This document shows, piece by piece, positions 2,873-63,342 of a stretch of DNA of 64,000 nucleotides. Below the pieces are notes generated by a model that was given only the letters and a program-made list of their open reading frames with translations, was not told where the DNA came from and made no database searches. The stretch's first letter is position 1; every line of letters begins with the position of its first letter. A program made the position numbers and the translations under genes. This DNA is from a bacterium (GTDB lineage: Bacteria; Orphanbacterota; Orphanbacteria; Orphanbacterales; Orphanbacteraceae), in assembly GCA_025782575.1 (NCBI GenBank), contig JALGYY010000035.1:340670-404669 (forward strand), given 5' to 3'.

Positions 2873-2957
2873 TCAGGGCGCTTCCCTGGTCGACTGGATC
2901 CGGCTCGTTCTTCTTGTCGTGCTCGCCTATCTTCTGGTGGAAGCACTGCGCACCTAC

Positions 2958-3098
2958 ATGCGAAGCGTGTTCCCCCTGGCCGGCCCATCGCCGACTCGCT
3001 GGCTCCTTCCGGGCATGTTCGGCGCCGCCACTCTCGGCGCCCTGTTCACCGCGTTCCGACTGATTCGAAAAATCCGGAGAGGAGGGAAAGAGAAATGA
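2958..3098 (+). CDS. small hydrophobic membrane protein, hypothetical (start uncertain)
   Basis: One or two predicted TM helices. Stop overlaps the GGDEF start (ATGA), suggesting translational coupling within a STAS-GGDEF operon. The longer ORF begins at 2811 inside the STAS gene. Confidence 0.3.
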   Translation: MRSVFPLAGPSPTRWLLPGMFGAATLGALFTAFRLIRKIRRGGKEK

Positions 3099-22322: not shown

Positions 22323-22343
22323 CGTCATCCCCTCCCTCAAGAT

Positions 22344-28968: not shown

Positions 28969-28995
28969 CGATATTCTCCCTCGGCTTCTCGTCGG

Positions 28996-30075: not shown

Positions 30076-30113
30076 GCCACTCGCCCCCCTCGATCAAACG
30101 AAGCGCGCATCGA

Positions 30114-41016: not shown

Positions 41017-42429
41017 TCAATGTGAGTCTGCGGAAGTTTTTCGATTCGACCGCCTGCCCCGTTTCCCGGTGCCCCTCGAAACAAGATCAAGACGGTATTT
41101 CTTGAAGAGATGCCACATGCTCCGTTCACTCATGCCTAGTTTTCGTGCCGCGCGCGCCTGGACCCAACTGCACCGATTGAGGGCATCGATCAGGACGCCT
41201 CTCTCAAATTCGGAGACCCGCTTCTGAAACGAAGGGACCTCATCGACTGTAGTCCGGCCGCCGCCGGCCGATCCCTGGATCGTGCCGGGAAGATCGCCCG
41301 GTGTCAGGTAGGGTCCTTCGCCGATCACGACAGCACGTTCGACCGTGTTCTCCAGCTCCCGAATATTGCCCGGCCACTCATGCCTCATCAGGATATCGAG
41401 GACATCCTCCGCCACTTTTTTCCTCTCCAGGCCGTTCGCCCTGCAATAACGGGTGATGAAATGCTCCACCAGAATCGGAATGTCTTCCCGCCTCTCCCTG
41501 AGGGGGGGGATCGAAATGTTGATCACATTCAATCGGTAGTATAGATCGGAACGAAAACGCCCTTCACGAATCTCACGCGAAAGATCCTTGTTCGTCGCCG
41601 CGATCACTCTCACGTCGGCGGGTATCGGGTGAGTCCCCCCCACCCTCTCGATTTCACGTTCCTGTAGTGTGCGCAGCACTTTCGCCTGAGTAAGAAGGCT
41701 CATGTCACCGATCTCGTCCAGAAAGATTGTTCCGCCATCAGCTCTCTCGAATTTCCCGATCCTCTTGTCTACAAGAGTCGCCGTGTTCTTTTCGATGCCG
41801 AAAAGTTCACTTTCCAGTAGCGATTCCGGAATGGCGGCGCAATTGACTTTGATAAAGGGGCCGTCCCGACGCTTTCCCTCCAGGTGAATCATTGAAGCGA
41901 CCAGCTCTTTCCCGGTGCCGCTCTCTCCGAGGATGAGGACAGAGGATCTGACGTTCAAGACCTTACGGGCACTGGCGAGTACCCGGCGAATCCCCTCTGA
42001 TTCCCCGATGATCTCGTTCGGCTTCTGGATTCCGGGCAAGCGGGTTCTATCGACCGGTCTGCGCGCGATCATCGGATTGTCACGCCTCACTGCGAGATTG
42101 ACGAGATAGGGAAGTGCGGAAAGTTCGTCCTCCGGCAAAACCAGCGCCGACCGGCTGTCCAGCACGCCGCCGGAATCCAGGTAGTCAGGTGTAATCCAGA
42201 CGACCGGAACATCGGACAGCCGCCTGCTTCTCCAGCTTCGAAAGATAGGATCATCAGCTAGATCCGCGCTGGCCACCACCAGGATCGGCTTCGGAACGAG
42301 ATCCGTCCCGGGGAGATCGTAGGAATGAGTGACGACAGAGAAGTCTGTCTCTTCGGGCGCCTTGCCACGTAGGGAAGAGTGAATCCGCTCGGCTTCGGCG
42401 CCGCACAGCAGAATGTGATGTCCCATCAT
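41017..42429 (-). CDS. sigma-54-dependent transcriptional activator (degenerate receiver-like N-terminus + AAA+ + HTH)
   Basis: GESGTGKE Walker A, GAFTGA-like region (ESELFGIEKN), C-terminal HTH (AARKLGMSERSMWHLFKKY). N-terminal domain lacks an obvious phospho-acceptor Asp. Confidence 0.85.
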   Translation of the reverse strand: MMGHHILLCGAEAERIHSSLRGKAPEETDFSVVTHSYDLPGTDLVPKPILVVASADLADDPIFRSWRSRRLSDVPVVWITPDYLDSGGVLDSRSALVLPEDELSALPYLVNLAVRRDNPMIARRPVDRTRLPGIQKPNEIIGESEGIRRVLASARKVLNVRSSVLILGESGTGKELVASMIHLEGKRRDGPFIKVNCAAIPESLLESELFGIEKNTATLVDKRIGKFERADGGTIFLDEIGDMSLLTQAKVLRTLQEREIERVGGTHPIPADVRVIAATNKDLSREIREGRFRSDLYYRLNVINISIPPLRERREDIPILVEHFITRYCRANGLERKKVAEDVLDILMRHEWPGNIRELENTVERAVVIGEGPYLTPGDLPGTIQGSAGGGRTTVDEVPSFQKRVSEFERGVLIDALNRCSWVQARAARKLGMSERSMWHLFKKYRLDLVSRGTGKRGRRSNRKTSADSH

Positions 42430-42610
42430 GGCGTATCTCGATGTCTGAGTCTGGGAGCGACAGAAACCGGTGGGGTCCGGAGAGAACCTGGGCACAATTT
42501 ACACCATCATTATACCCGAGAGCCTCCCCGCCTGTCAAAGAGAAGTGGGGACGAGGTATCCACTCTGGTACCGGGGAGGGCGACTTCTGATATCAGGACG
42601 AATCAGGGTG

Positions 42611-46745: not shown

Positions 46746-47000
46746 ATGAACGTAAGAACCGCGCTGATCTTGGCGCTCATCGGCTGCCTGTTTGCCCCTG
46801 CCGTCTTCGCTAGCCAGGATAGGGGAGCACAGGAGGCGACGAGCGGCTTCGGTATTGAACGGGAAACGCAACTCAATGTGTTCTCCCAGGGGAACGATCA
46901 GAACTCCGTTAGCCGTCTCGGCATTTTCGGCAATCTGTTCCGTCTCCAGATCGAAGCCATGTTCCGGTATCTATCAGCATGGAGCAGTATCTGGACGTAA
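46746..47000 (+). CDS. small secreted protein, hypothetical (84 aa)
   Basis: Signal peptide MNVRTALILALIGCLFAPAVFA. AGGAGGAGG RBS. Confidence 0.45.
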   Translation: MNVRTALILALIGCLFAPAVFASQDRGAQEATSGFGIERETQLNVFSQGNDQNSVSRLGIFGNLFRLQIEAMFRYLSAWSSIWT

Positions 47001-47097: not shown

Positions 47098-50058
47098 CTA
47101 CTTCACAAGCAACATCTTTTTCGTTTCGGAAAACTCGCCACTCGTCAATTTATAGAAGTAGACCCCCGATGAGACTGGCTTACCTTTCAAATCCGTCCCG
47201 TCCCACGCTGTCTCGTAGCGGCCCGCTTTCTGCGTTCCGTCAATCAGGGTCCGGACACGGCGACCACCTACATTGAAAACTTCCATAGTGACCCGCCCTT
47301 CCCTGGGAATGGCATAGGCGATACGGGTAGTAGGATTGAACGGATTGGGATGGTTCCCGTCAAGTGAGTACGCTCTCGGCGCCAACCCTGCAATTTCGTC
47401 GGCCGACCCGCCGATTCCGGTCGCGATACCAGGACGGACGAATCGGAACTCATCGACTCCGGCGTGAATTCTTGTGGGCGCCCCGGTATCCCGGGCTACG
47501 AATCGAAACTGCACACTGTCGATTGTGCCGAACATCGCGCCGAGATCGAGTTCGACTTCGACCCAGGATTCCGTTCCCGTTTCAACGTGTTCGATCTCGG
47601 TCCAGCTTGAACCGCCGTCCACACTGACAACCGGATCCCACACTTCATCCAGGGTCTCCAGCGGGCCGTCGGCTCCGAAGTTATTGGAATACCAGCGGTG
47701 ATAGCGAGCCACAACGCCCGGCGATCCGCCCAATTGATAGAACGGAGAGTAGAGCGTGGTCTTCCCTTCCTTTACCTCGTTATTTGCACCTGTCGGACCG
47801 GTGAAGAAGCAGTTTATTCCGTCAGGCGTGACGTCGTCCTCCGGCCTTGTGGCCTTCATCACAGGGTCGCCGTTCGCCCAGATGCCTTTCGTGGCATCGT
47901 CAGTCGAGTCGCCGAGTGTCCACCCGCCTACGCTCTCACAAGGATCGTAGATGAAGACCACGTCGTACCAGTGGTTGTTTGCCGGGGCGTTAGGAGGACT
48001 CCAGTTCACATGGAACACCGAATCCGCTGCTTCGACATAGTACTGTACCCGAGAGCCCTGAACCTGCGCCGGGATCGAAGCGTCGTATTCATCAGGATTC
48101 GCCGTAGCGGTCATCGAAACGGACGAAAAAACGCCTCCGTCCACGTTGTAGTAGAGCGTGACCGATGAAGGATCGATCCCCCCGCTCAATCCCTCGACAA
48201 GCGCGGTAACCGTGCGTGCGCTCAGCGTGTCGGTGGTCGAAGGAAGGCCGGCGTGAGTGATCTGGACACCGGCGGAAATCACAGGAACAGTAAACCCGAT
48301 TTCCTCGGCCGCCCCTGCGAATTCGACGAAATTGGGAGTCCCCGTGTCGAGATCGCCATCATTGTCATCATAGATAAACGTCCACGTTACCTGATCCTGG
48401 ACGTTAGAAGGTATTCCGGCCGAACGGCTCTGCTGCCAGATGATCGGGAGGAGCGAGTCTGTAAATGTTTCGCCATAGGAGGTGATCATCCGGTTCCGGG
48501 TCTCCCAGAAGTACGCTGAAATCGCCTGGCCGTCATGATGGCCTGAGCCGTTATTGTCATCCGGGAATACGTAGCCCATGCTTGCGCTACGGATCCCGTG
48601 GTTGCAGGCCCCGTTAGTGAAACCGATGCCGAGGGTGGGCCGCTTCAAAAGGAGCAAGCTGATCACATCGGAGTTGCCTTCGCTCTGGGCACTGCTGAAA
48701 GGGTTTCCGGAATAGGTCCACTGAGAAATTCCGTGGCCGTACTCATGGTAGATCACGTCACCCAGCAAGGCCGTGTTTGCGAACGATGGCGATCCGAGAC
48801 AGTAGTTCGTGGAGGCACCGTCCCACCAGGCATTACCAGGGCAGAATCCGTCGGTCCTCTCCAGATTGACTGTCATTTTGAAGTCATCGGCTGTCATGGC
48901 CGGATCGATTTCCTGCAACTTGTCGCGCACAACCCAGTGGTGGTACCAGGCGTCTCTTTCCGCCGCTCGTGAGTTGCTGTCGTCCCAGTAGAAATCAGCC
49001 ACCTCTTCGACGAGAAGATCGATCGTATCACCGGAGATGGGAGGGCCGTTGGCGATCGTCTGAATGAACCTCGGACCGTTGAAACGGATGTCCACCGTCA
49101 CGCTGCCGGTCTCAGCTGTCGTAAAACTCCAGAGGCCGTCATCAGAAGTATTGGTACGCTGACCATCCGACAGATTGACGAACTGCTTCTTGAGGGGCAG
49201 ATTGTCCAGCGTTCCGCAGTAGTCCGGGTTATCGACATCAGCCCGAATCGATCCCGAAACCGTCGCCATTTCATATGTCTGCCGGCGAGCGTAGATCTCC
49301 CCGGTATTGGCATCGATCCAGTTCTCCCATCCGCCGAACGGATTGCTCATGTGGAGAATCACCTTCCAGGTGGGGCGATAGACGTAGCCGTCTCCCTCTT
49401 CCTGCGGGTAGATGAAGAGTTCAGGATCCTCTCGCATGAAGTCGAAATCATCCACGAATGACATGTCCCCTTTGGCGATCGCTACCGCCTCCTGCTCGGA
49501 GATCAGCCCTTCCACATCGGCTTCCATACCGGGATGAAAGTCCGACCCGATCGCAAAGATCCGGCCCGACTCGGTCATCACCACATGGGCACGACCGCCG
49601 TATACCCAGAGTCCTTCATATATCTCTCGAAATACGACCGACCACTTCCCATTCGTTCCGACCGTCCAGGGCTCGCCCAATCGGCCCGCACTCAGGTGAA
49701 GCAGGTCCTCGTTTTCAGTCAGGAATGTGCGCGCAATTTCTTCGGCCCTTGTCTTGTCGGCCACATGCTCGTTCACATAGTTGAACCCGCTTCCGAGGAT
49801 GTGGTGGGGAGTTCCCAGGATCGGATCCCGTTGGATGGCCCAGTTCCCACCGAAGCGATTCTTGAATTCCTGCAGGTCAGGATCGATCCGCTCTTCGCTA
49901 CGGACGAAGCGTTCGAACACCTTCTCCTGGATACCCGATTTGCCGAACTCGAGCGCCTGCTGGGATTCGGCCGGCCGGAATGCGGCCGATGGTGACACCA
50001 GGAGCGCCGACAGGCATAGAAATGCGAAAACTCTGCGATCTAGAGACATACACTCCAC
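47098..50058 (-). CDS. secreted zinc metalloprotease (HExxH; M4/M36-like with PepSY/FTP propeptide) carrying a T9SS C-terminal sorting domain
   Basis: Signal peptide, HEYGH zinc motif, and a C-terminal about 80 aa typical of the T9SS type-A CTD (NHPNPFNPTTRIAYAIP...SSGVYFYKLTSGEFSETKKMLLVK). Confidence 0.8.
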   Translation of the reverse strand: MECMSLDRRVFAFLCLSALLVSPSAAFRPAESQQALEFGKSGIQEKVFERFVRSEERIDPDLQEFKNRFGGNWAIQRDPILGTPHHILGSGFNYVNEHVADKTRAEEIARTFLTENEDLLHLSAGRLGEPWTVGTNGKWSVVFREIYEGLWVYGGRAHVVMTESGRIFAIGSDFHPGMEADVEGLISEQEAVAIAKGDMSFVDDFDFMREDPELFIYPQEEGDGYVYRPTWKVILHMSNPFGGWENWIDANTGEIYARRQTYEMATVSGSIRADVDNPDYCGTLDNLPLKKQFVNLSDGQRTNTSDDGLWSFTTAETGSVTVDIRFNGPRFIQTIANGPPISGDTIDLLVEEVADFYWDDSNSRAAERDAWYHHWVVRDKLQEIDPAMTADDFKMTVNLERTDGFCPGNAWWDGASTNYCLGSPSFANTALLGDVIYHEYGHGISQWTYSGNPFSSAQSEGNSDVISLLLLKRPTLGIGFTNGACNHGIRSASMGYVFPDDNNGSGHHDGQAISAYFWETRNRMITSYGETFTDSLLPIIWQQSRSAGIPSNVQDQVTWTFIYDDNDGDLDTGTPNFVEFAGAAEEIGFTVPVISAGVQITHAGLPSTTDTLSARTVTALVEGLSGGIDPSSVTLYYNVDGGVFSSVSMTATANPDEYDASIPAQVQGSRVQYYVEAADSVFHVNWSPPNAPANNHWYDVVFIYDPCESVGGWTLGDSTDDATKGIWANGDPVMKATRPEDDVTPDGINCFFTGPTGANNEVKEGKTTLYSPFYQLGGSPGVVARYHRWYSNNFGADGPLETLDEVWDPVVSVDGGSSWTEIEHVETGTESWVEVELDLGAMFGTIDSVQFRFVARDTGAPTRIHAGVDEFRFVRPGIATGIGGSADEIAGLAPRAYSLDGNHPNPFNPTTRIAYAIPREGRVTMEVFNVGGRRVRTLIDGTQKAGRYETAWDGTDLKGKPVSSGVYFYKLTSGEFSETKKMLLVK

Positions 50059-50214: not shown

Positions 50215-51876
50215 TCAATCACCCAGGTAACCGAGGGCCTTCAGCCTCTCCAGGGCGGCAGGGTCGATTTCAACTGTATCAACTTCTACTGACCCGATCC
50301 CCGCTATCTCGGCCATCTTGAGGTCGAGTATCTTTTTGTGGATCGCGGCCTCCGCCGCCCTTTCGTACAAGAGGTTCTTTGTCTCACCCGGATCCTCGGT
50401 GAGATCGAAATAGAGATCGCCCGGGTCGATCTGGCCCTCGAAATTGATCACTCGAATGTACTTTCTATCTTTGGTCCGGATGCCGCGAATATCGTACGGC
50501 CCATATCGCTGCAGAAGCTCTTCATGGTAAGCAATGCGCTCCGGCCCGTCGTTGTTGCCGTAGACAAGGGGGAGCGCACTCCGGCCCCGGGCCGTTTCGT
50601 CGGGCTCCAGTCCGAGATACTCGAGAACGGTCGGGACGATATCTACACTGGAAACCACATCATCGATCTCCTGACCGGTCCGCCCCATAGGCGGGAATCG
50701 GACGGGAGAGGGAATCGAAAGCACCATCGGCACGTGAACGGAACCTTCATAGATGATCTTGTTGTGCCCCCAGAAACCGTGTTCCCAGAACTCCTCTCCA
50801 TGGTCGGAAGTGTAGATGACAAGCGTGTTTTCCCACTCGCCCCGCGTTTCAAGCGCGGAAACAAGCTTGCGCAGTTCGGAATCCCAGTAGGCGATCGCGC
50901 CGTCGTATTGGGCCAGAAGATTTTGGAGTACCCGTTGCTCGGGCTTGCCGAGTTCATGCTTCCAATCCGAAACAGGCGCTTGGTCCCACTCCGGATCGAA
51001 CAGTTTCTGGTAAGCAGGAGGCGGCTCATACGGATTGTGAGGATCGATATAGAAAAGAAAACCGAAGAGGGGTCGATCTTCCTCTCTTCCGTCAATCCAG
51101 TTCAGGAACTTACCGTTCACACGGCCGGCCGGAGTGTGGGCCCAGTTCGGGTCATGTTCGAACTTGTCGAAACCCTGTGAGTATCCCTGCCGTGGTCCCA
51201 GGTGGGGATTGGTGGCGTAGCCATAGGTCTGATAGCCGGCATCGCTCAGGTATTCGGATAAGAGGGTGAATCGACTGGAAAGCACGTTCGAATAGCTCAC
51301 GATGCCATGCTGACTCGGATAAACGGATGCGAGGATACAGGGCGTGGAAACGATGGTGTGCGTCCCCTGTGAAACACCGTTCGTAAAGACGACAAGTTCG
51401 TCCCGCTGAGAGTCGAGATAGGGTGTGGTTTCGACCTGATATCCATAGAGGGACAGATGATCCGCTCTGGTAGCATCGGTGACAAGTAGAAGGACGTTCG
51501 GCTCCCCTCGCGTGTTCATGGGGACGAGAATCGCGAAGAGGATACCGGTAGCCAGGAGGCTCGTCCCGTAGGCGATCCCCCTGCTCCGGAACAACCGGTT
51601 CCCGGCAATCACAGCTGGAATTCCGACAAGGAACCCGAGTCCGAGGAACGCTGCCCAGAACACTTTCATCTGGTCAGGAGCCAGGCCGCCGTATGGAATG
51701 GCCATGATCTGCCATAATGCCGCTGCCGCGCCTATGACGATCCCGATCCCCCCCCCGATCAGGGGATTCGCCTTCTCGACCGGAGGGAAGTCCTCCAGAT
51801 CCTCCTCAAGATGATCCACCAAACCATCCTCCCTTGACCGGCGTCCGACTACAGAAACGGGAACATGGTAGCACAA
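50215..51876 (-). CDS. membrane-anchored sulfatase-family hydrolase/transferase (alkaline-phosphatase superfamily)
   Basis: Three N-terminal TM helices then a sulfatase core (LLLVTDATRADHL, SQHG). TTG start, uncertain. Confidence 0.7.
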   Translation of the reverse strand: MCYHVPVSVVGRRSREDGLVDHLEEDLEDFPPVEKANPLIGGGIGIVIGAAAALWQIMAIPYGGLAPDQMKVFWAAFLGLGFLVGIPAVIAGNRLFRSRGIAYGTSLLATGILFAILVPMNTRGEPNVLLLVTDATRADHLSLYGYQVETTPYLDSQRDELVVFTNGVSQGTHTIVSTPCILASVYPSQHGIVSYSNVLSSRFTLLSEYLSDAGYQTYGYATNPHLGPRQGYSQGFDKFEHDPNWAHTPAGRVNGKFLNWIDGREEDRPLFGFLFYIDPHNPYEPPPAYQKLFDPEWDQAPVSDWKHELGKPEQRVLQNLLAQYDGAIAYWDSELRKLVSALETRGEWENTLVIYTSDHGEEFWEHGFWGHNKIIYEGSVHVPMVLSIPSPVRFPPMGRTGQEIDDVVSSVDIVPTVLEYLGLEPDETARGRSALPLVYGNNDGPERIAYHEELLQRYGPYDIRGIRTKDRKYIRVINFEGQIDPGDLYFDLTEDPGETKNLLYERAAEAAIHKKILDLKMAEIAGIGSVEVDTVEIDPAALERLKALGYLGD

Positions 51877-51934
51877 CGGAATGACCGCGCGGAGAGTGAA
51901 GAAGCGAGAGGGTCACGGCCCGGGATCGGGCCTT

Positions 51935-52744
51935 TCAATACTGTCCGAGAGTACCGTCCCGTCTCGCCCGGTTAATGGCGAAACGAGCGGCGAGAATGCC
52001 TACGAAGAGGGCCACGACCGTAAACGCTATGAGTGAGAGCAGCTCTCTTTGCAGGCTCCCGAGACCGTGACCGCTCAGAAGAGACATGCGCATCCCTTCG
52101 AGCGAATAGGTGAGTGGAATGAATTTCGCAGCATCCTGGAGCCAGTCCGGAAGTACGGTGAGCGGAAAATAGACACCCCCGAGAAGACGGCTGAGAGAAG
52201 TGAAAATCCAGTTCACCGGGTTGCCCCGTTTCATGACCAGAATAAAACTCGCAGCCAGAATGCCGAGGGAAGAAAATGAAACGACGGTCAGGGAGAGAAA
52301 GATCAGTGCCACCGGAATATTCGGATTAGTGAGGCGGAGATCGAAGAAGAGAACACCGACAATGAGATAGAGAACGATCTGGAAGGAGGCCCAGATGAAA
52401 CTCCACATCGATGATGATATCAGATAGGTGGAAAATCGCGTCGGTGTGGAGAGAACCGCCTCGAGCGTGCCGAGCACCTGCTCCTCTCGAATCCGGGCGG
52501 AGAACGAATTCAGTCCCGTGGAGAGGTAGTTGGAGACAGCGACGCCGATCAGCACGAACGAGAAGTAATCGCCGCCATATTTCTCCAGGTAGGGATTCAT
52601 TGTCGTATCTATCAACTGCGCGAGAAAATAGAACATGGTCAGCGTGAGCGCGACAGCAAGAAACTGCATCACAAACGCGAGGCGATAGCTCGAAGCTACG
52701 ACGAGATCTTTCCAGAGAAATGCATACGGTTTGCTCCGATTCAT
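51935..52744 (-). CDS. ABC-2 type exporter permease
   Basis: Six-TM ABC-2 permease. ATGA overlap with the ATPase gene. Confidence 0.8.
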   Translation of the reverse strand: MNRSKPYAFLWKDLVVASSYRLAFVMQFLAVALTLTMFYFLAQLIDTTMNPYLEKYGGDYFSFVLIGVAVSNYLSTGLNSFSARIREEQVLGTLEAVLSTPTRFSTYLISSSMWSFIWASFQIVLYLIVGVLFFDLRLTNPNIPVALIFLSLTVVSFSSLGILAASFILVMKRGNPVNWIFTSLSRLLGGVYFPLTVLPDWLQDAAKFIPLTYSLEGMRMSLLSGHGLGSLQRELLSLIAFTVVALFVGILAARFAINRARRDGTLGQY

Positions 52745-53739
52745 TCCTCCACCTTCCTCGAGTACCGCTTGTAGATTTCCTCGAGAGACCCTCGTTCGAT
52801 CTCAAGCCGGCGCATTGTTCCATAGCGACCGCTGAGGGCATGAATCAGACTCTCGGGACTGACATCAGGGCGGCCGAACCGGAGTTCGCAGCGGCCGATA
52901 CCAGGACCGGTCGGAATCAGTTCCAGATTCTCGAGATCCGGAAGGCTTCGGAGCGGCTCGAACCACCCCTCATCAGGATCCGTAACTTCGATACAGACCT
53001 CCAGATGGATCTCGAACTGCTCGACTACCTCATCCGGAGTTCCCGCCGCCAGCACGTGACCCTGATGGAGAAAAACGAGCTTGTCCGAGATTCGATCAAC
53101 AGCGCCGAGATCATGGCTCGCCAACAGAATGGCGCATCCCTCCTCATGGGCGAGATGGCGCAACCGATCTAAAAACAGTGAGCAGGTGTAGGGGTCGAGA
53201 CCTCTCGTCGGCTCATCGAGAATCATGATGGGCTGGCTGCCGATCAGAGCTCTTACTACCGATAACTTCTGCTTCGTCCCGGTGGAATATGTCATGAATC
53301 GAGAATCGATCTCCCGGATCTGAAGCAGCTCCGCCAGTTCGTCGATTCCCTGTCGAATCGTTTTTTCGTCTATGCCTCGGAGTTTCCCGAAGAATCGGAG
53401 ATTCTGGCGGCCGGTCAGGCGGTAATAGAAGCTCCGTTCCTCGGCCATGCAGATACCCAGGCGACTTCTGGTATAGAGGCTGTCCCGGACCGTATCCCGT
53501 CCGTCCACGAGTGCCTCGCCTTCGCCGGGCAGGATGAGCGAGGCGAGGATTTTGAGAGCGGTCGACTTGCCGGAACCGTTCGGGCCTAGCAGGGCTACGA
53601 TTTCGCCCGGGTCGACATGGAAGCTGACATTCTCGAGAGCCTGAATCGATTCCCTCCGAAAGGGATTGCGGAAGAGCGCATCCAGACCACGCTTCACCGG
53701 ATAAGCTTTCGATACCGACTTCAATTCGATGGCGTGCAA
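52741..53739 (-). CDS. ABC transporter ATP-binding protein
   Basis: Walker A GPNGSGKST, signature YSTGTKQK, Walker B MILDEP. TTG start after GGAGGA. Confidence 0.9.
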   Translation of the reverse strand: MHAIELKSVSKAYPVKRGLDALFRNPFRRESIQALENVSFHVDPGEIVALLGPNGSGKSTALKILASLILPGEGEALVDGRDTVRDSLYTRSRLGICMAEERSFYYRLTGRQNLRFFGKLRGIDEKTIRQGIDELAELLQIREIDSRFMTYSTGTKQKLSVVRALIGSQPIMILDEPTRGLDPYTCSLFLDRLRHLAHEEGCAILLASHDLGAVDRISDKLVFLHQGHVLAAGTPDEVVEQFEIHLEVCIEVTDPDEGWFEPLRSLPDLENLELIPTGPGIGRCELRFGRPDVSPESLIHALSGRYGTMRRLEIERGSLEEIYKRYSRKVEE

Positions 53740-53771
53740 ACTCGTTCCTCCAGATATCGCTGCCGACTCGT

Positions 53772-54956
53772 TCAGTGAAGACGCCGGAACGGGGAGACTA
53801 TCAGATTCGAAATGACGTCGATCAAAGAAATAAAGCCGGACAAATGTCGCCTGACACGACGTGACACGGGGATCGGCTCTTCCTTCGTATAGTAGAGTTC
53901 GGCGCTATAAGCTTCATCCGGAAAGACAAGCCTCCAGGCGAAGTCGGATAGCTTGTGATCACCGAAGTACGCGGAAGACCAGATTCGGAATCGGAGTTCG
54001 CGGCCCGACGAAATGGGAAAGAAGTCAGACCCGCGATAACGGGATGCGAATCGCTCCACCCGGGACGGCATGGTGGTGTCGTAACGGGGATCACCCCAGA
54101 AGCGGCGGAGAAAGAGGAGCGCCGCCTGCGTCTCCTCTCGCATGCCCCACAATTCGGCGTGCCGGATCACATGATCCGCCGTAATGGAAGGTTGAGCATG
54201 AAAGAGTCTATCGAGATCGACGAGTCGCTTCAGAGATAAATAGTGAGACATGCGCAGACTTGCCATTACATAGACGATCTCATCGAGAGGGGCGAGAAGT
54301 TCGATCGGCGATCCGCCTAAACTTCCCTCGATACGCCGACGGAACAATTTCGACGTATCGACCCGAAGGCTGAACGGATTGTGGAGCAGATTCCAGTGGA
54401 GTTCCACTACGTCGACTGTCTTTCTTCGCCTGACATAGACGACATGAAAGTGATGGCGCCGGTAGAAGCCCCTTGAGTGCACGAGTTCGAAGAGCGCGTA
54501 GCCGAGTGATTCAAGAAGGCGCTCGGCTGTGGCGAGCTGCTCCGGAGGCACGAGCAGATCAAGATCGCGCACATCACGCAGCGAGGAATCGCCGTAGTTT
54601 CGCTCGGCCAGCGGGAGACCCTTCAGAACCAGACAGTGGACCTCCCCCTTCCGAAAGTGCCCGAGAACTTCCTTCAATTCATGTTCTCGAAGAAGGGATC
54701 GAACGATGCTCTTCTCCGATTCGTTCAGGAGACGGTCGACGAGACTGGGCGGTGCGAGTTCGCGCAGCCAATCCGTCTTCAGAATGGCAGAGGCTGCGAG
54801 AGGGACGATCTTAGTAGAGAACAAGAGTTCCTCGAAGCGGTCCCAGACGAACCATCGAGAATCGGCGATGATGGCCCCGATTCTCGTCCGATCGAGTTCC
54901 ACTCGGAGCACTTCCCTGACAAGGTCCATTTCAGAAGACAGACGGACACCGTTCAT
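53772..54956 (-). CDS. nucleotidyltransferase-family protein (PF14907/NTP_transf_5-like), RiPP-associated
   Basis: 394 aa with nucleotidyltransferase-fold motifs (GS..LRDVRDLDLLV). ATGA overlap with the B2-like gene stop. Confidence 0.65.
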   Translation of the reverse strand: MNGVRLSSEMDLVREVLRVELDRTRIGAIIADSRWFVWDRFEELLFSTKIVPLAASAILKTDWLRELAPPSLVDRLLNESEKSIVRSLLREHELKEVLGHFRKGEVHCLVLKGLPLAERNYGDSSLRDVRDLDLLVPPEQLATAERLLESLGYALFELVHSRGFYRRHHFHVVYVRRRKTVDVVELHWNLLHNPFSLRVDTSKLFRRRIEGSLGGSPIELLAPLDEIVYVMASLRMSHYLSLKRLVDLDRLFHAQPSITADHVIRHAELWGMREETQAALLFLRRFWGDPRYDTTMPSRVERFASRYRGSDFFPISSGRELRFRIWSSAYFGDHKLSDFAWRLVFPDEAYSAELYYTKEEPIPVSRRVRRHLSGFISLIDVISNLIVSPFRRLH

Positions 54957-55477
54957 TCCTTCCGCCCCCGATCCCGGGCAAAATAGGCGCTGTGATCAGC
55001 GTCACCCCCTATCGCTCCGTTTCTAGGGAGCGAAAACAGGGAAACGAACTTCGCGATGTCTTCATCGGTCTCCAGAAAAGGCTTTCCTTCGAGGGTGAGC
55101 CAGGAGTGTCCCTCCCATCCCTCTTCCCGGGGATCGACGCCGAAAGAGACCCGGACCGGTACGCCGCTCCGGCGGAAGAGATGGGAGAGCAGCAGGCACC
55201 GGCGAAGGCAGGTGCGTTTGAACGGGAAGAGAGGGGAGCGCAACAGCTTCTCGGTAAGGGCGTAGGAAATAGCCGCGCCTTCGATGTGGGGCTCCACTCC
55301 TTCGGGTAAGCCGGTTGTGGGAAAGAGGCTCTCCACCGGCCTCCAGGGGAGAAGCAGAAAAAGACGAATCGCTGTGAGGGTCGACCTGAGAATATGCCAG
55401 AAATTTGGCGGCCGAAGGAGTACATGCCCAGGGAGCGAGTACTCGACGATCGCTCTTTCCAGGTGAGGCACTTCCAT
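54953..55477 (-). CDS. lasso-peptide B2-like transglutaminase-fold cysteine peptidase
   Basis: Cys-His-Asp triad context: CLRRCLLLSHLFRRSGVPVRVSFGV...GHSWLTLEGKPF...ETD. Confidence 0.7.
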   Translation of the reverse strand: MEVPHLERAIVEYSLPGHVLLRPPNFWHILRSTLTAIRLFLLLPWRPVESLFPTTGLPEGVEPHIEGAAISYALTEKLLRSPLFPFKRTCLRRCLLLSHLFRRSGVPVRVSFGVDPREEGWEGHSWLTLEGKPFLETDEDIAKFVSLFSLPRNGAIGGDADHSAYFARDRGRKE

Positions 55478-55503
55478 GAGATGGGTTCCATGCGTCCGGG
55501 GTG

Positions 55504-56466
55504 CTAGAGCAGGTCCTCGCGGATCCGATCAGCCAGCGACCGGGCATCCCCCCCGAAGAGGAGCCGGTAAGGCTGTACGCCATCTACCATTTCGCCTAGT
55601 ACGTCGATGTGATTCTGAACGAGCTCTTTCGCGGCAGGCAACACCGATTGCGGAATGAGCCTGATCAGCGCTTCCTCTTTCGTCACCGGTTCGAATGTCG
55701 TCCGGGGCTCCGTCACGACTTCAGGAAAAAGAAGCAGACTAGGTGCCACGCCGCCTCTTCTTCCCCCGCCGGGAAGGTCGGCCTCCTCCAATATAAGTTT
55801 TCCCATCTCCGAGGTGAAGCGTTTCCCCCACTCGGGGAAGAACCTTTGGGATCCTCTGCCGATTTTGACCGGCTCCGGGAACGCATCCATGACAATCCCT
55901 TCATCGGATCTTGAAAGAAACAGAGTGTCGTCGGAAATGAGCGGACATCCCGACATGATCGCGGAGAGCGCGGAGGTGGACTTCCCGGAACCGCTCATTC
56001 CGCTCACAACCACGCCCCGCTGATCGACCAGGAAGCCGGCGCCATGCAATGGGAAATGTCCTCGCTTTCGCATCCATTCAATCAGGGGAAGATAAAAGAG
56101 CCTGTGCCCGATGATCCATGAATTGGATTCATGGTCCGGATGAACGAGACACTCCACCGTACCGCTCTCCAGGTCGCACCGAGCAAGAGAACGTTTCTCG
56201 ACGACAATCAAAAGCTCGCCATCTTCGTCGTGTATGGTGAAGTCTCGAGCTGCGGAGAAAGAGAGGGGCTCACTGCGAGGCATGGCCGGCCGGCCGACTT
56301 CCTGCTGAAGGCGAAATTGATAGTGGAGGTCTGGCTCTCGACCGATGATATCGACCTCGAGCAGAGCGGCTGCGCGAAGAACCGATGCACGCACCGCTCG
56401 ACTCGGGCAGTCCACCTCGATCGTCTGATCGAGCAGCGCCAGACTGATCCTGTCCGGTCTGCTCAT
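55504..56466 (-). CDS. HPr kinase/phosphorylase C-terminal-domain-like kinase (HprK-related, RiPP-associated)
   Basis: P-loop GMSGSGKST in an HprK_C-like context (HGAGFLVDQRGVVVSGMSGSGKSTSALS...SDD). 2-nt gap to the PqqD gene stop. Confidence 0.75.
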   Translation of the reverse strand: MSRPDRISLALLDQTIEVDCPSRAVRASVLRAAALLEVDIIGREPDLHYQFRLQQEVGRPAMPRSEPLSFSAARDFTIHDEDGELLIVVEKRSLARCDLESGTVECLVHPDHESNSWIIGHRLFYLPLIEWMRKRGHFPLHGAGFLVDQRGVVVSGMSGSGKSTSALSAIMSGCPLISDDTLFLSRSDEGIVMDAFPEPVKIGRGSQRFFPEWGKRFTSEMGKLILEEADLPGGGRRGGVAPSLLLFPEVVTEPRTTFEPVTKEEALIRLIPQSVLPAAKELVQNHIDVLGEMVDGVQPYRLLFGGDARSLADRIREDLL

Positions 56467-56468
56467 CC

Positions 56469-56750
56469 CTAGTCGCTGATTGTGACGAGGCCGTCTTCCG
56501 CCAACCGCTCGGCCAATTCAATGCAGTCCGTAAGGGCGATCGACTCTTCCACGTCAAATGAACCGGCGAGCCGGCGGGCGATTTCGCGTACTGACCTCGT
56601 ACCATCAATCGCTTCCCATATGAACCGGCCGGTGCTGTTCAAGCTGAAGTAATAGCCACTTTTCAGATCGACGAGAATGCCTTTTCCATCCACGCTGCGG
56701 GAGGGGGCATCCGGTGATTGGGTCAATATGGTACCCTCTGAAATTGACAA
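56469..56750 (-). CDS. PqqD-family RiPP recognition element (lasso B1-like peptide chaperone)
   Basis: 93 aa. PqqD pattern GKGILVDLKSGYYFSLNSTGRFIWEAIDGTRSVREIARRLAGSFDV. TTG start 8 nt after AAGGGGG. Confidence 0.75.
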   Translation of the reverse strand: MSISEGTILTQSPDAPSRSVDGKGILVDLKSGYYFSLNSTGRFIWEAIDGTRSVREIARRLAGSFDVEESIALTDCIELAERLAEDGLVTISD

Positions 56751-56788
56751 TCTCTTACCCCCTTTTCATCCGCAGAGAGTCTGTCTCC

Positions 56789-56823
56789 AAAAAAAAGATG
56801 GGAAGGCAACGCCTTCCCATCTC
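56789..56823 (-). terminator. strong intrinsic terminator/attenuator between precursor genes and the PqqD gene
   Basis: Minus-strand hairpin GATGGGAAGGC-gtt-GCCTTCCCATC followed by TTTTTTTT. Confidence 0.6.
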
Positions 56824-56847
56824 TCACAATCGTTCGAATTTCGAAAA

Positions 56848-56979
56848 TCAGCCGCCGTCAACCGGATCGTGCAACTGCGTTTCAATAGCGGGAATGTGAA
56901 CCCTGGCAGTTGAAACAAGCGTGATTTCCCTGAGATTGTCATGCCGAATGATCTCAGGTGTTTCGTACGCTATTTTCAT
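56848..56979 (-). CDS. candidate RiPP precursor peptide A2 (43 aa: MKIAYETPEIIRHDNLREITLVSTARVHIPAIETQLHDPVDGG)
   Basis: Not in the ORF track (<60 aa). Start ATG overlaps the A1 stop (ATATGA). Shares the first ~27 residues with A1, then diverges. Confidence 0.5.
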   Translation of the reverse strand: MKIAYETPEIIRHDNLREITLVSTARVHIPAIETQLHDPVDGG

Positions 56980-57098
56980 ATCCGAGCTTCTTCATGCTCC
57001 AGCACATCGGGCTCAACCCGAGGGGTGGAGACGAGAGTAATCTCGCGAATGCTCTCATGCCGCACGATTACAGGCTTTTCGTAGATTTCAACCTTCAT
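56976..57098 (-). CDS. candidate RiPP precursor peptide A1 (40 aa: MKVEIYEKPVIVRHESIREITLVSTPRVEPDVLEHEEARI)
   Basis: Short ORF first in the minus-strand cluster. YxxPxI and T-containing leader-like motifs. Paralogue of A2. Confidence 0.5.
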   Translation of the reverse strand: MKVEIYEKPVIVRHESIREITLVSTPRVEPDVLEHEEARI

Positions 57099-57414
57099 TG
57101 GCCTAGAACGCTCCCATGTGGTCTTTCGCTACTCTGTTAGCAGTACTCCATGAGAATAATAGACCCTTCCAGGAAAGGTGTCAATAACTAATTGTAAAAT
57201 AGCAAGTTGTGAGGCAAAGGACACATTCGGGGCACTATTTGGCCGATACACTCTTTAATAGCGGCGTGGCTGGGCCCTCGAGAAGCTCATTCGGGCTGAA
57301 TTACCGCCGTTCTGGCCTGCCGCGCCCCCAAAGCCCCCATCGGGAGAGCCCAAGCGCACCAGACGGTCTCAGTACAGGCCCTGTCAGTGGCTCCTGAGCC
57401 TATCAGCATCTCTC

Positions 57415-57969
57415 CTAGATTCTACCCGCTCGATGGATCCCATACCAGTAGAAAGCGGCCACCACCAGAGCGTGGGCGATTTCGCCCCCTTCCATCATCT
57501 TGAGGACCTCAGATTCCGGCCTCAGGATGACCTCGATCTCCTCTCCAGGATCCAGACTCATTTTTGAACTCGGAGAAGCGCCCTCAGCCAGGTAAGTGTG
57601 GCACCGGTTCGTCTGGAATGCCGGATTCGGCTCAACTACTCCCAGCGGGACCCAGCTTCTCGCCTCGTATCCCGTTTCTTCTCTCAATTCGCGGCGAGCA
57701 GCCTCTTCCGGCGAGGAGTCTCTGGCATCCACTCCCCCCCCCGGAATTTCGAGAGTGTACTCTCTGGTACCGTGCCGGAACTGGCGGACCAGCAGGATTT
57801 CCCCAGCATCCGTCCTGGCGATCACATTGACCCAGTCCACAGTCTCCATAACAGTGAATTCTCTTTGAAAGCCGGTGGAAGGTGAAACCGAGCGGTCAAG
57901 GCGGACTGAAAAAATTGCGAAATCGCCCGCATGCCGCGACTGAAGCCGGGTCCATTTCTCGTCCATCAC
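57415..57969 (-). CDS. NUDIX hydrolase
   Basis: Nudix box GGGVDARDSSPEEAARRELREETG. Confidence 0.75.
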   Translation of the reverse strand: MMDEKWTRLQSRHAGDFAIFSVRLDRSVSPSTGFQREFTVMETVDWVNVIARTDAGEILLVRQFRHGTREYTLEIPGGGVDARDSSPEEAARRELREETGYEARSWVPLGVVEPNPAFQTNRCHTYLAEGASPSSKMSLDPGEEIEVILRPESEVLKMMEGGEIAHALVVAAFYWYGIHRAGRI

Positions 57970-60059: not shown

Positions 60060-60668
60060 TCAGATATATCGGAGTAGCCCAACTACCTTGCCGAGGATAC
60101 GGAACTCCCCGTCTGCCGGATCGATCTGGATCGGCTTCATTTTCTTGTTCGCCGGCCGAAGCTCGATCTCGCCATCTTGCTTGTGGAAGTACTTCACAGT
60201 CGCTTCGTCTCCGATCAACGCCGCAATAATCTCGCCGTTTCGAACCTCGGTAGTCGGACGAACCAGTATCATATCCCCATCCGAAATGTGGGCTTCCACC
60301 ATGCTCTCACCTCGGACGCGCAGCAGGAATTCCCCATCCCCCCGGAGAAACGAAGGGTCGATCATGAACGTGTCTTCAATGTTTTCCTCAGCAAGAGTAG
60401 GAACACCCGCGGCAATCCGGCCGAGGAGGGGTATGCCCTGATGATCCTCAGGTTCGATGTAGTTTAATTCCAGCGCCCGCGACTTACCCATTGCTCTCTT
60501 GATATATCCTTTCCGCTCAAGGGCATTCAAGTGATCCACAACGCCCTTCGTCGACCGAATTGAGAATCGGAAACCGATTTCCCGTATGGTTGGCGGGTAA
60601 CCGTATTCTTTATAATGCTGCACGAGATAATCATAGATCTCCCGCTGGCGGTCAGTCAGCCTCTTCAT
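60060..60668 (-). CDS. lexA: LexA repressor
   Basis: N-terminal winged HTH, cleavage-site Ala-Gly (RIAAGVP), and S24 peptidase Ser/Lys (GESM...KKM). Confidence 0.9.
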   Translation of the reverse strand: MKRLTDRQREIYDYLVQHYKEYGYPPTIREIGFRFSIRSTKGVVDHLNALERKGYIKRAMGKSRALELNYIEPEDHQGIPLLGRIAAGVPTLAEENIEDTFMIDPSFLRGDGEFLLRVRGESMVEAHISDGDMILVRPTTEVRNGEIIAALIGDEATVKYFHKQDGEIELRPANKKMKPIQIDPADGEFRILGKVVGLLRYI

Positions 60669-60705
60669 CTCACACTCCCCTCAGCTGTATTGCAGCTTGC
60701 CTCTC

Positions 60706-63342
60706 TCACGATCCTGTCGAACGGAAACCTAGAAGCGGAAGCGGAATCTGTTCATCCCGCCTTTGCGGTTTTCGGTCTCCCTCTTCTCCTCCTGCTCGTT
60801 TCTCTCGTTGTCTGGCTGTTGAAGCTCGTTTCAGCCCGCTACTCCGCCGGCCTGAACTTTCCGCGCGATCAAATGCCATCGCGATGCGCAAGAGAGCCGG
60901 TCTTGGAAACGGCCTGGAAGCCATACGCTCAAGAAATTCCCCGACTGACCGAAACGGTCCCCCGCATTCTCTTTCCTGCGTAATCAGATTCCCCAGATCG
61001 GCATCGATTCCAGGAACGATCGCAAACCCGTTCCTGATTCCTCCGTCAACCTCGGTGAACATATACTCGCTGCTGTTCTTGTCTACAGGAAGGAACGGGG
61101 TCCCCTCCTTTTGAAAGCCCTCGACCAACAGGTGAAGCCTTCTCCTGTCCCCCAGTGACCGATTCAAAATTCTCGCTGCAAAACCGTTGAGACTCCCCTG
61201 TTTCCTTGCACTCAATGTCTGGATCGCACCTGCCAGACGGAGCATGATTCCCCTCTCGGGGACGAGGGGTGTAACGGCACACAATATCGAGAATACTTTT
61301 TCTGCGAAACGGTCTCCTACTCCTCGATCCACCGATCGCCGGACGAAGAAGGACCGATCAGCTCTCAGTTCCGGACCCTCGCCGCATTTCATTCGGTTGA
61401 AGAGATCTTCCGCTTTGGCGTGTTCCACCTTTGTCATTCTGCGAATGATCTCTACTACCTGCTCACGATAGAAAGGGACGCCGTCGGTAACGGTTAGAAT
61501 CTTTTCAATACCGCCTCCCATGAGTGGAATCGGGGCGTTCCCTTTCCTGATCTTGATGATTCTACGGACAAGATCACCCCGTTTGGAGTCCAGACCGGCT
61601 GCGACGAGAAGGGCGATATCCTCCCGATTCCGAGGAGCCAGCATTCTTGCCAGCCGTCTATGCACCGGTCTTGCTGACGCCAGGATACCCGCCCAGTTCC
61701 CCTTTCCGAGAAGCGAATTTCCGTCATCCTCTTCCGGCAGATCATCCGTTGCCCGTAATGCTTCGTCCATCGACGATGCGCGGATTTCAAGATCCAAACC
61801 GGCGTTCATCTCCCAGCATGACTCCGGAGAGTCACACCAGATGAGCGACTCTTTCTCGGCCTGGTAGGTCATGATCGTGTCTCGCGACCAGGGTGGTGTC
61901 TGATTCACCAGTAGAGGGTCCGGAACTTGGTTTTCCCGGTAGTGGGGTTCGAATAGATTTTGGGTGGATCGATTCGATGTGGGTCCGGACCACTCTCCTG
62001 GTGACGATCGTACAATTCGATCGAGACGCTCTTGATCGGCCTGGCTGAGAAAGACCGGCCGAATTTCATGACTGATTGATTCCGCATACCTCTCACTCAT
62101 AACCCGCCTGAAATTGTCGACTGACTTACGGTCTCCGTCGATTACAAAACGCATCCTTCCCTGACCGGTTGGTGTTGAAGCCGACAACTTGTTCTCTTCG
62201 GGATCAATGCTCTGAAGACCGGTTAAATAGCCGAGGAGGCTACCGGATAGGTAGGTAGTCGAGATGCGCGCTCTCCGATCAATCTGTCTCACCAGCGCGA
62301 ACGCTTTCGAAATCTTCTGGACCGCCGGCAATAGTCCCTTGTCCTCATACCGCCAGTATTCAGTCCAGAATCGATTCCCGATCTCCTTCATCTTCCAATC
62401 CGGCTTGCCTTGATATTGCTTCTCGATTTCCGATTGGCATCTGCGAATGAGTTCATCTCCTTCGCTTGCGATCGTTGCCCGATGGACCCTGTCGTTCGCC
62501 GCCCCTCCGCACCGCTCGGCGATCTCTTCCGTCCGGTCGAGCGGTTGAGGGTCGTCTCGGTAACGCTCCTCCATTTCGTCACAGGAGGGCAGGTGCACCG
62601 CCCCTTCGACGACCAGCGGATCGGGGCTGTGAGTCCCCCCGCCGGGAGGGAGAATCGCCCTCAGTTCGGCAAGTCGGGGTCGATCTCCTTTGGTCAGGCA
62701 TCTGACCGGATCAGCCGCTACTCGATCGAGACCGAATCGACGCTCCAGTTTCCGAAGGAAGGGATCGACGAGGCTCTCATGTCGGCTGTTGGTACGGCTT
62801 ACTTCCAGATAAAAATGGGATGGTGTGAACAGTGATGCGAGAAGAGCGGCGGCACGTGATGCCTCGGCGATGAGGCCCTTTACCAGGGCGCCCGATACAG
62901 GGCCGGTCATCCCGCCGCTGAGAGCGATCAACCCCCTGCTGTACCGACCGATTTCATCGAGGTCGGCGATCCCCCTCCGGCGATCGATTCGCCCGGGGGA
63001 CCATATGAGACGAAGAAGCCTGTCCAGATTCCAACGGCCCCGCAGGTCCTCGCACAGAAGAGTGAGGGTGTACACACGCTCGGAAGAGAGGGATCCGCCT
63101 GCGGGGAATGCGACTTCTACTTCCGCCCCTTCGATCGGAGCTACATCTGATTCGTCAAAGGCGGAACGGGCCTGAACGAACCCGAATAGGACACCACGAT
63201 CGACTACGGCCCCTGCACGGATACCCCTCGCGGCCAGAGCCCCGGCCAGATCGACCGGATCGATCAGTGAGAGGACCGGCGAGAATTTGGTGTGCAGCCT
63301 TAGTGGCACGTAGCTCATAGCTTCCTCCATCGAGCTACACAA
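60706..63342 (-). CDS. DnaE-family polymerase-like protein, unusually short (878 aa; error-prone DnaE2/ImuC-like?)
   Basis: N-terminal PHP-like domain aligns with DnaE (LSGGMTG..FYLEVSRT..LA..GL..VAADPVR..LRAI, TEEIAERCG). A possible palm D-x-D (FVIDGD) is present. The C-terminal half is much shorter than in Pol III alpha. The gene sits immediately upstream of lexA. Confidence 0.5.
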   Translation of the reverse strand: MCSSMEEAMSYVPLRLHTKFSPVLSLIDPVDLAGALAARGIRAGAVVDRGVLFGFVQARSAFDESDVAPIEGAEVEVAFPAGGSLSSERVYTLTLLCEDLRGRWNLDRLLRLIWSPGRIDRRRGIADLDEIGRYSRGLIALSGGMTGPVSGALVKGLIAEASRAAALLASLFTPSHFYLEVSRTNSRHESLVDPFLRKLERRFGLDRVAADPVRCLTKGDRPRLAELRAILPPGGGTHSPDPLVVEGAVHLPSCDEMEERYRDDPQPLDRTEEIAERCGGAANDRVHRATIASEGDELIRRCQSEIEKQYQGKPDWKMKEIGNRFWTEYWRYEDKGLLPAVQKISKAFALVRQIDRRARISTTYLSGSLLGYLTGLQSIDPEENKLSASTPTGQGRMRFVIDGDRKSVDNFRRVMSERYAESISHEIRPVFLSQADQERLDRIVRSSPGEWSGPTSNRSTQNLFEPHYRENQVPDPLLVNQTPPWSRDTIMTYQAEKESLIWCDSPESCWEMNAGLDLEIRASSMDEALRATDDLPEEDDGNSLLGKGNWAGILASARPVHRRLARMLAPRNREDIALLVAAGLDSKRGDLVRRIIKIRKGNAPIPLMGGGIEKILTVTDGVPFYREQVVEIIRRMTKVEHAKAEDLFNRMKCGEGPELRADRSFFVRRSVDRGVGDRFAEKVFSILCAVTPLVPERGIMLRLAGAIQTLSARKQGSLNGFAARILNRSLGDRRRLHLLVEGFQKEGTPFLPVDKNSSEYMFTEVDGGIRNGFAIVPGIDADLGNLITQERECGGPFRSVGEFLERMASRPFPRPALLRIAMAFDRAESSGRRSSGLKRASTARQREKRAGGEEGDRKPQRRDEQIPLPLLGFRSTGS

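Follow-up and report, generated by a model that had tools for sequence, protein, structure and literature searches.

The window, a 64-kb stretch of bacterial DNA from whose first letter all positions below are counted, carries on its minus strand a compact operon of two precursor peptide genes (A1 and A2) and genes for a PqqD-family RiPP recognition element (RRE; RiPP, ribosomally synthesised and post-translationally modified peptide), an HprK-like kinase, a lasso B2-type leader peptidase, a PF14907 nucleotidyltransferase and a two-gene ATP-binding cassette (ABC) transporter. No gene for a macrolactam synthetase (cyclase) was found in the window. The chances seem to us somewhat better than even that the operon is a working RiPP pathway, derived from the machinery of phosphorylated lasso peptides, which does without a macrolactam synthetase and makes a linear product. 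Open reading frame (ORF) and domain searches confirmed all genes listed in an earlier reading of the same DNA (the original prediction), with their positions and their minus-strand orientation.

Table 1. Features of the operon and of the genes next to it, in window positions.
Feature	Position	Strand	Basis or remark
Whole operon, promoter to permease	51935-57184	minus	one compact unit
Sigma-70-like promoter, TTGACA-17-TATTAT	57156-57184	minus	11/12 consensus matches; 5' of the precursor genes
Precursor A1, 40 aa	56976-57098	minus	leader MKVEIYEKPVIVRHESIREITL, predicted core VSTPRVEPDVLEHEEARI
Precursor A2, 43 aa	56848-56979	minus	leader MKIAYETPEIIRHDNLREITL, predicted core VSTARVHIPAIETQLHDPVDGG
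Intrinsic terminator/attenuator hairpin, 15 bp, loop GUU, with U8 tract	~56789-56825	minus	sequence reading and folding
PqqD-family RRE (lasso B1-like)	56469-56750	minus	PF05402, E 3.7e-17
HprK/ScmC-like P-loop peptide kinase (predicted), 320 aa	55504-56466	minus	motif, profile, AlphaFold model
Lasso B2-type transglutaminase-fold cysteine leader peptidase, 174 aa	54953-55477	minus	PF13471, NF033537
PF14907 nucleotidyltransferase (PsmN/BsfN-like)	53772-54956	minus	PF14907, E 3e-43
ABC transporter ATPase, DrrA-like, TTG start	52741-53739	minus	domain searches
ABC-2 permease, DrrB-like	51935-52744	minus	domain searches; ATGA-coupled to the ATPase gene
Membrane-anchored alkaline-phosphatase-superfamily ('sulfatase') protein	50215-51876	minus	PF00884, E 4e-49
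NudE-like NUDIX hydrolase	57415-57969	minus	directly upstream of the precursors, same strand

The close spacing of the genes was as predicted, with a gap of 2 nt between the RRE and kinase genes and 4-nt ATGA overlaps between the B2 and nucleotidyltransferase genes and between those of the ATPase and the permease. A further ATGA overlap joins the start of A2, which the Logan assembly likewise lists as a gene, to the stop of A1. The RRE gene has a TTG start and the Shine-Dalgarno sequence AAGGGGG, and 58 nt separate the permease gene from that of the sulfatase-family protein. The terminator placed by the original prediction between the precursor and RRE genes was recovered as a hairpin with a folding energy (dG) of -28 kcal/mol (z -4.65; 0/200 shuffles fold as well); it was missed by a simple consensus terminator scan and clear on direct reading and folding.

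Precursor peptides and enzymes

Homologues of the precursors were located between the NUDIX and RRE genes of the Eisenbacteria loci L004, L005, L007, L009, L094 and L100; that of the Krumholzibacteriota locus L102 precedes the RRE gene. The spacing Y-17/P-14/I-12/T-2 of A1 is that of the lasso leader register. Counted from the conserved Thr, this register (Y-17, P-14, L/I/V-12, T-2) is kept in 9/9 Eisenbacteria and Krumholzibacteriota precursors, which share the motif Y-x-[KT]-P-[EV]-[LIV]-x3-x-x-[LI]-[KR]-x-I-T-L followed by [V/L]-S; lasso leaders have been described with the same register, YxxPxL at -17 to -12 (PMC10368454). The substrate peptides, described earlier as visible, are so in the window and, as homologues, at 7/12 Eisenbacteria clusters and at L102, and none is recognisable at the remaining 5/12.

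The predicted cores of the homologues are VSRPRVGLEKHELFIGDEA (L004), VSTSRITAHKEELFIGDEE (L005), VSDPKLHLERHELYVGDEL (L007), LSRRELFVGDDHHPTGGGGS (L009), LSSPRVTAEKHEMFIGDEGNL (L094), LSHDALYVGKEETSAKQTGG (L100) and LSFSPPESTYDIDKQ (L102). Core position 1 is Val or Leu in all nine peptides. Ser2 is their sole invariant core residue, and in L004 and L007 it is the sole Ser/Thr of the core. An Asp or Glu at positions 7-9, where the lasso acceptor lies, was found in 5/9 cores, with about 0.53 expected by chance at such an Asp/Glu content; A1 has both E7 and D9, and A2, L005, L009 and L100 have no acceptor there. In the window, the C-terminal core residue is Ile or Gly. Searches of the Eisenbacteria precursors against NCBIfam gave no match, except a weak, sub-threshold lasso-leader match of one window peptide, A2, whose residues 1-20 aligned with lasso_cyano NF033528. 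Judged by their sequences, the peptides are lasso-type precursors in the leader only.

Profile searches bore out the B2-like and PqqD-like calls. In addition to its PF05402 match, the RRE scored 38-42 bits with the lasso_PqqD models, below their cut-offs of 70-80. The peptidase matched PF13471 (E 9e-12) and, with 41.5 bits, NF033537 lasso_biosyn_B2 above its cut-off of 33. The Cys/His/Asp triad proposed for it stood in two of its members, Cys90 and His124, which are invariant in 29/29 homologues; the third is less sharply placed, within an acidic patch (D138-E139-D140) that aligns with the third triad residue of a canonical lasso B2. A sequence search of the PDB with B2 returned nothing useful.

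The kinase carries the motif H141-G156-G159-G161-K162-S163-D179-D180, with the same residue set and spacing as the catalytic motif of BsfK, H148-G163-G166-G168-K169-S170-D186-D187 (PMC10368454). All eight residues are invariant in six close homologues; an alignment of 81 sequences shows no exception at H141, G161, K162 or D180, and conservation of at least 90% at G156, G159 and D179. Over the motif region, a profile of the family matched HprK structures in the PDB, and the AlphaFold model (predicted local distance difference test, pLDDT, 93) has an HprK/PEPCK-like fold. A weak precomputed match to PF27840 (ScmC) was also present, and only six 90%-identity clusters were retrieved from the word-indexed database. 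The original prediction had cited HprK-like kinases of the paeninodin type. Lasso kinases are not confined to a C-terminal Ser: BsfK phosphorylates Ser3 of the core and is accelerated by the RRE (PMC10368454).

The nucleotidyltransferase matched PF14907 with 148.6 bits (cut-off 31.2), and G113, D131 and D133 of its G...DxD site are invariant. Its AlphaFold model (pLDDT 92) shows a nucleotidyltransferase fold, with MenT1, ANT(2'')-Ia, LnuA and FKRP as nearest folds. The enzyme associated with lasso clusters had been called uncharacterised, which is not wholly so: PsmN is required for the hexose(s) added onto the phospho-Ser of pseudomycoidin, and its Asp pair equivalent to D131/D133 is essential (PMC6993621).

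Occurrence of the gene set in other bacteria

The block NUDIX-(precursor)-RRE-kinase-B2-nucleotidyltransferase-ABC-ABC was found in 12 distinct Eisenbacteria loci, with kinases 42-54% identical. The genomes with close kinase homologues are Candidatus Eisenbacteria metagenome-assembled genomes (MAGs), some of them labelled Gemmatimonadetes. As the loci also share their flanks, synteny within the lineage might by itself explain this recurrence. The decisive case against mere synteny is L102, where the same seven genes form two convergent units (precursor-RRE-kinase facing B2-nucleotidyltransferase-ABC-ABC) between flanks wholly unlike those of Eisenbacteria (BatA-D, V-ATPase). The ABC ATPase and permease are kept in all Eisenbacteria loci and in L102. 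A hairpin with a U tract lies 3' of the precursor gene in 8/8 precursor-bearing loci of the two lineages, its stem sequences differing.

A decaying lasso-cluster remnant, without its cyclase and no longer functional, would account for the missing class-defining enzyme and for the loss of precursors in some loci. It is hardly credible beside seven genes that remain full-length and keep their catalytic residues unchanged in at least 12 genomes and a second phylum, at a protein identity of 40-55%, and beside an intact promoter, Shine-Dalgarno sites, translational coupling and terminator.

More distant members were collected in a metagenome scan by a 12-sequence sub-alignment of distant kinase members, which gave 80 loci, annotated by iterated searches, with flanks spot-checked with Pfam. 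In the closest soil group (L014-L035) a four-gene cassette for PqqD, B2, kinase and nucleotidyltransferase was found, without a cyclase. The kinases are 25-30% identical to that of the window, and B2 precedes the kinase in gene order. The cassettes lie among unrelated genes (VWA, CLC channel, aldo-keto reductase, ice-binding-like, amidase), and no ABC exporter was seen alongside. In ten loci, ORFs of 23-25 aa with a strong Shine-Dalgarno sequence, such as MKTYIKPRLRCLGLLRLVTKFSF, were found 5' of the cassettes (for example L016:2125-2196, L021:8025-8096 and L020:2047-2118); their third-codon positions are the most variable. All of these peptides (10/10) keep the -17/-14/-12/-2 register, with a Y-to-T spacing of 15. 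Lasso-leader matches of soil peptides in NCBIfam were all sub-threshold, one of them 18.6 bits with NF033521 (cut-off 19). The predicted core has three residues, [F/L]-[S/T]-F, and is therefore far too short for a lasso ring of 7-9 residues. Together with the nine peptides above, a Ser or Thr occupies core position 2 in 19/19. No published description of these soil cassettes was found.

In a third group (L040-L080) the precursor has the same leader register (...KKAFVEPxISVPVDVLEATT, followed by the core FFQAASSGVTN, which is free of Asp/Glu), and its neighbours are a related kinase, a nucleotidyltransferase, a PqqD protein, a radical S-adenosylmethionine (SAM) enzyme, an HTTM protein and a sulfotransferase-like protein. 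An example is L056, with the peptide at 1454-1560 and the radical SAM gene at 2581-3633. This group resembles the SynChlorMet cassette. Searched against 1.84 billion proteins, the kinase profile matched 154 representatives at an E-value of 1e-30 or lower, and 2042 when the limit was relaxed to 1e-10. One of these, P0089 (507 aa, ENA metagenome data), is a natural fusion, with a lasso B2 domain (NF033537, 3.8e-14) N-terminal to a kinase of the family.

The sulfatase-family gene was included in the cluster by the original prediction. It is a conserved neighbour whose membership in the system is doubtful, and does not belong to the core: it follows the permease gene in six loci, is displaced in L097 and L100 by a large gene on the opposite strand, and is absent in L008, L009 and L102. 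Together with the NUDIX gene it was rejected as a core part, neither being kept outside Eisenbacteria (L102). In sulfatases the Arg of the C/S-x-P-x-R motif is needed for formylglycine. The nucleophile motif of the window protein is S-T-P-C-I (T-T-P-C-I in L097 and L100) and lacks this Arg, so that the protein was not accepted as a formylglycine-dependent sulfatase, though it meets the Pfam Sulfatase fold. The protein, which has three N-terminal hydrophobic segments, may instead be a phosphoesterase or phosphotransferase with a Ser/Thr nucleophile.

The NudE-like NUDIX gene lies upstream of the precursor position in all Eisenbacteria loci, and its membership in the system is uncertain. At L102 a HIT/HinT-like nucleotide hydrolase gene (L102:8897-9262) occupies the NUDIX position, on the same strand as the precursor. 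Two unrelated nucleotide-X hydrolases at the same position, a single observation, are suggestive. The NUDIX or HIT hydrolase could serve in self-protection or in recycling of a nucleotide-linked intermediate.

In three of the precursor-less loci the short spacer between the NUDIX and PqqD genes contains a conserved block of about 40 nt with TATAAT (L002:9600-9720, L003:9590-9720, L010:9320-9490). A conserved ORF in this block was ruled out by a stop in the shared frame of L003, and the block is probably a promoter. The Acidobacteriota loci L012 and L013 contain genes for glycosyltransferases, Bac_transf, Poly_export, CofD and AsnB-like amidotransferases; a PqqD gene lies beside a 68-aa ORF about 8 kb from their PF14907 homologues.

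Several other genes of the window were noted. A secreted 986-aa protein (47098-50058, minus strand) has an HExxH metalloprotease motif (HEYGH) and a C-terminal domain of FlgD_ig/type IX secretion system (T9SS) type; with an 84-aa signal-peptide protein (46746-47000, plus strand) it is syntenic in most Eisenbacteria loci. A LexA repressor gene beside an 878-aa PHP/DNA_pol3_finger/HHH_6 polymerase gene (DnaE2-like; 60060-63342, minus strand), kept in the orthologous loci, is probably an SOS mutagenesis cassette. A stress operon of PrkA serine kinase, an intervening ORF and SpoVR is located at 27451-32150 (minus strand), an unusual fusion of an ABC-2 permease and a CAAX (Rce1-like) protease at 35501-37480 (minus strand), and three sigma-54 activator genes at 7469-8890, 20937-22340 and 41017-42495.

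Search for a cyclase and weighing of the readings

The absence of an Asn-synthetase-like ORF from the 64 kb, as originally reported, was upheld by motif, domain and profile searches. No SGGxDS motif was present in any long frame of the window, no Asn_synthase domain among its ten largest ORFs, and no match at E<=10 between an iterated AsnB-like profile and all window frames of at least 60 aa. The same profile recovered two genuine lasso cyclases elsewhere (L089, L093). A cyclase gene just outside the window in the same operon had been named as a finding that would overturn the prediction; no Asn_synthase gene was located within 10 kb on either side in the 12 Eisenbacteria loci, and no cyclase at L102. 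The other findings named to this end, spurious B2 and PqqD calls and peptides not conserved at homologous clusters, mostly did not appear either. In canonical lasso loci from the same scan (L084, L089, L093) the cyclase adjoins B2 or the kinase, and the cores of L084 and L089 are of the Gly1...Asp8 type.

Lasso peptides are defined by the cyclase, and mining tools seek B and C together. Among the features by which a lasso cluster is recognised, the leader register, B1 and B2 are present in the window, and a cyclase and an acceptor-bearing core with a small residue 1 are missing. Because these last two are defining features, the operon ought not to be classed among lasso clusters. The conclusion that the product is not a classical lasso peptide is supported by the cyclase-free gene set in the 12 Eisenbacteria loci and L102, and by the soil cassettes with their three-residue cores.

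The points that weigh against a functional, cyclase-free pathway with a modified linear product concern the reach of the cyclase search, the identity of the tailoring enzymes and the distribution of the precursors. The search covered 64 kb of a 599.5-kb MAG contig, and bears only indirectly on a cyclase elsewhere in the genome. An ordinary lasso pathway with such a cyclase acting in trans would fit the presence of all other lasso parts, the small part of the genome seen, and the Asp/Glu at positions 7-9 of five cores, A1 included. We consider it very unlikely, as none was found within 10 kb in 13 independent loci of two phyla and the canonical loci of the same scan (L089, L093) keep theirs beside B2 or the kinase. 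Moreover, A2, L005, L009 and L100 would offer no acceptor, position 1 is Val/Leu where the lasso precursors compared here have Gly (L084, L089; PMC10368454), and the related three-residue soil cores cannot form the ring.

As to the tailoring enzymes, the kinase scored under the Pfam and NCBIfam cut-offs (25.9 bits with PF07475, cut-off 33.3), and we know of no function for ScmC, its nearest named relative. A direct activity of PsmN is unproven, and the protein might merely supply substrate to a host glycosyltransferase (PMC6993621). The kinase-like protein and the nucleotidyltransferase could be scaffolds or act on another substrate, and the product would be an unmodified, leader-cleaved and exported linear bacteriocin or signal for which the leader peptidase of lasso pathways was borrowed. 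B1/B2 and the ABC exporter suffice for leader removal and export, and the lack of demonstrated activity among ScmC-family proteins, with kinase matches below curated cut-offs, fits this as well. We hold it to be unlikely all the same, since the BsfK-type motif and the metal-binding Asp pair of the nucleotidyltransferase are invariant across very divergent members. Both proteins also accompany B1/B2 in every locus of three lineages, a B2-kinase fusion exists, and Ser/Thr is invariant at core position 2.

Regarding the precursors, five of the 12 Eisenbacteria loci (L002, L003, L008, L010 and L097) have intact enzymes and no recognisable precursor within 10 kb by regular expression and hidden Markov model (HMM) searches, and distant PF14907 homologues lie inside exopolysaccharide loci of Acidobacteriota (L012, L013). 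Both observations, together with the PqqD gene about 8 kb off in the latter and the glycosyltransferase and two NUDIX genes that flank the Eisenbacteria cluster, would suit a main substrate encoded elsewhere, either a trans peptide or a non-peptide envelope component, with the adjacent peptides as dispensable or lineage-specific clients. Such a substrate appears quite improbable to us: where a precursor is present it has its own promoter and terminator and a leader in the recognition register of RRE and B2, and it persists in three lineages whose flanking genes are unrelated. B2 of the precursor-less L002, L003 and L010 has Gly at the acidic triad column, which may mean divergence of that clade and not a general rule.

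Proposed pathway and comparison with known systems

For the functional operon with a linear product, the chemical steps, their acceptor residue and order, and the biological role are proposed by analogy with the phosphorylation of Ser3 by BsfK/BsfB1 (PMC10368454) and the addition of phosphate and then hexose by PsmK/PsmN (PMC6993621). The precursors would be transcribed from their own promoter, with a leaky terminator holding the enzyme transcripts below those of the precursors. The PqqD-type RRE is expected to bind the leader at YxxPx[L/I/V] (-17 to -12) and to present the substrate to the HprK-like kinase, which would phosphorylate the core, most likely at the invariant Ser2. Phosphorylation of core Ser3 by BsfK is a better precedent for this than that of a C-terminal Ser, because the window cores do not end in Ser. 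The PF14907 enzyme may then decorate the Ser2 phosphate with a hexose, as with PsmN, or with a nucleotidyl group. The B2 cysteine peptidase would cleave after Thr(-2)-Leu(-1), and the ABC-2 transporter would export the linear modified peptide of 18-22 residues.

To a broader claim we give slightly less than even odds: these systems may form a separate RiPP class in which B1/B2 were recruited without a cyclase and the kinase/nucleotidyltransferase-dependent decoration of Ser/Thr2 is the defining step. Its products would range from exported peptides of 15-22 residues (Eisenbacteria, Krumholzibacteriota and probably Fermentibacteria) to a modified tripeptide, [F/L]-S-F, in soil bacteria. If this is true, the B1/B2 leader-processing pair would be a portable module, reused by evolution for a different product, and the HprK-like kinase with its PF14907 partner would be class-defining chemistry and not optional tailoring. 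The functions of PF14907 and of ScmC-type "kinases", both still poorly understood, would become directly accessible, and the systems would point to new phospho-, glyco- or nucleotidyl-peptide natural products of soil bacteria and uncultured candidate phyla, among them one with an unusually small core of three residues. Mining tools that rely on B and C occurring side by side are likely to miss such clusters or leave them unclassified. The searchable full-text literature, which leaves out most subscription journals, yielded no description of such an arrangement without a cyclase.

Upon comparison with described families, the likeness to an HprK-related genome-context family suggested by the original prediction did not hold. 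The kinase scored 36.5 and 43.1 bits with HprK-related kinases A and B (TIGR04352, TIGR04355; cut-off 200) and was rejected as a member; the similarity is confined to about 60-70 residues of the P-loop region, and the function of both sides is unknown. SynChlorMet systems (ScmC/ScmD; TIGR04249, TIGR04248, PF27840) also combine an HprK-like and a PqqD-like protein in a setting of peptide modification without a lasso cyclase, but they centre on radical SAM/SPASM enzymes, of which the window operon has none. Membership was likewise rejected, with 19.2 bits for ScmC (cut-off 125), 27.5 for ScmD (cut-off 100) and no radical SAM gene. The soil cassettes share with the window the four enzyme families, the lasso-register leader, Ser/Thr2 and the lack of a cyclase, and differ in gene order and core length.

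The paeninodin and pseudomycoidin clusters of Firmicutes (PMC8498205, PMC6993621) have the kinase in common with the window. The psm nucleotidyltransferase gene lies between B2 and the ABC genes, as in the window, and the model of PsmN resembled ANT(2'') (PMC6993621), as does that of the window enzyme. In these clusters, however, a C-terminal Ser is phosphorylated and the macrolactam is formed by the C enzyme (PMC8498205, PMC6993621), whereas the window cores do not end in Ser and a C enzyme is lacking.

Of the characterised systems, the bsf cluster of Bradymonas sediminis comes nearest; its genes A, B1, B2, C, D, K and N yield a phosphorylated lasso peptide (PMC10368454). The two clusters agree in keeping B1 and B2 as separate proteins, in a PF14907-type N, an ABC exporter and a YxxPxL leader, and in an HprK-like kinase whose catalytic motif is spaced alike. 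They part at the cyclase, BsfC, for which the window has no counterpart, and at the peptide itself: bsf has a Gly1...Asp8 core preceded by Ile at -2, whereas in the window the core opens with Val/Leu1-Ser2, shows no conserved acceptor and is preceded by Thr at -2. The window operon is the bsf set minus C, with a different core.

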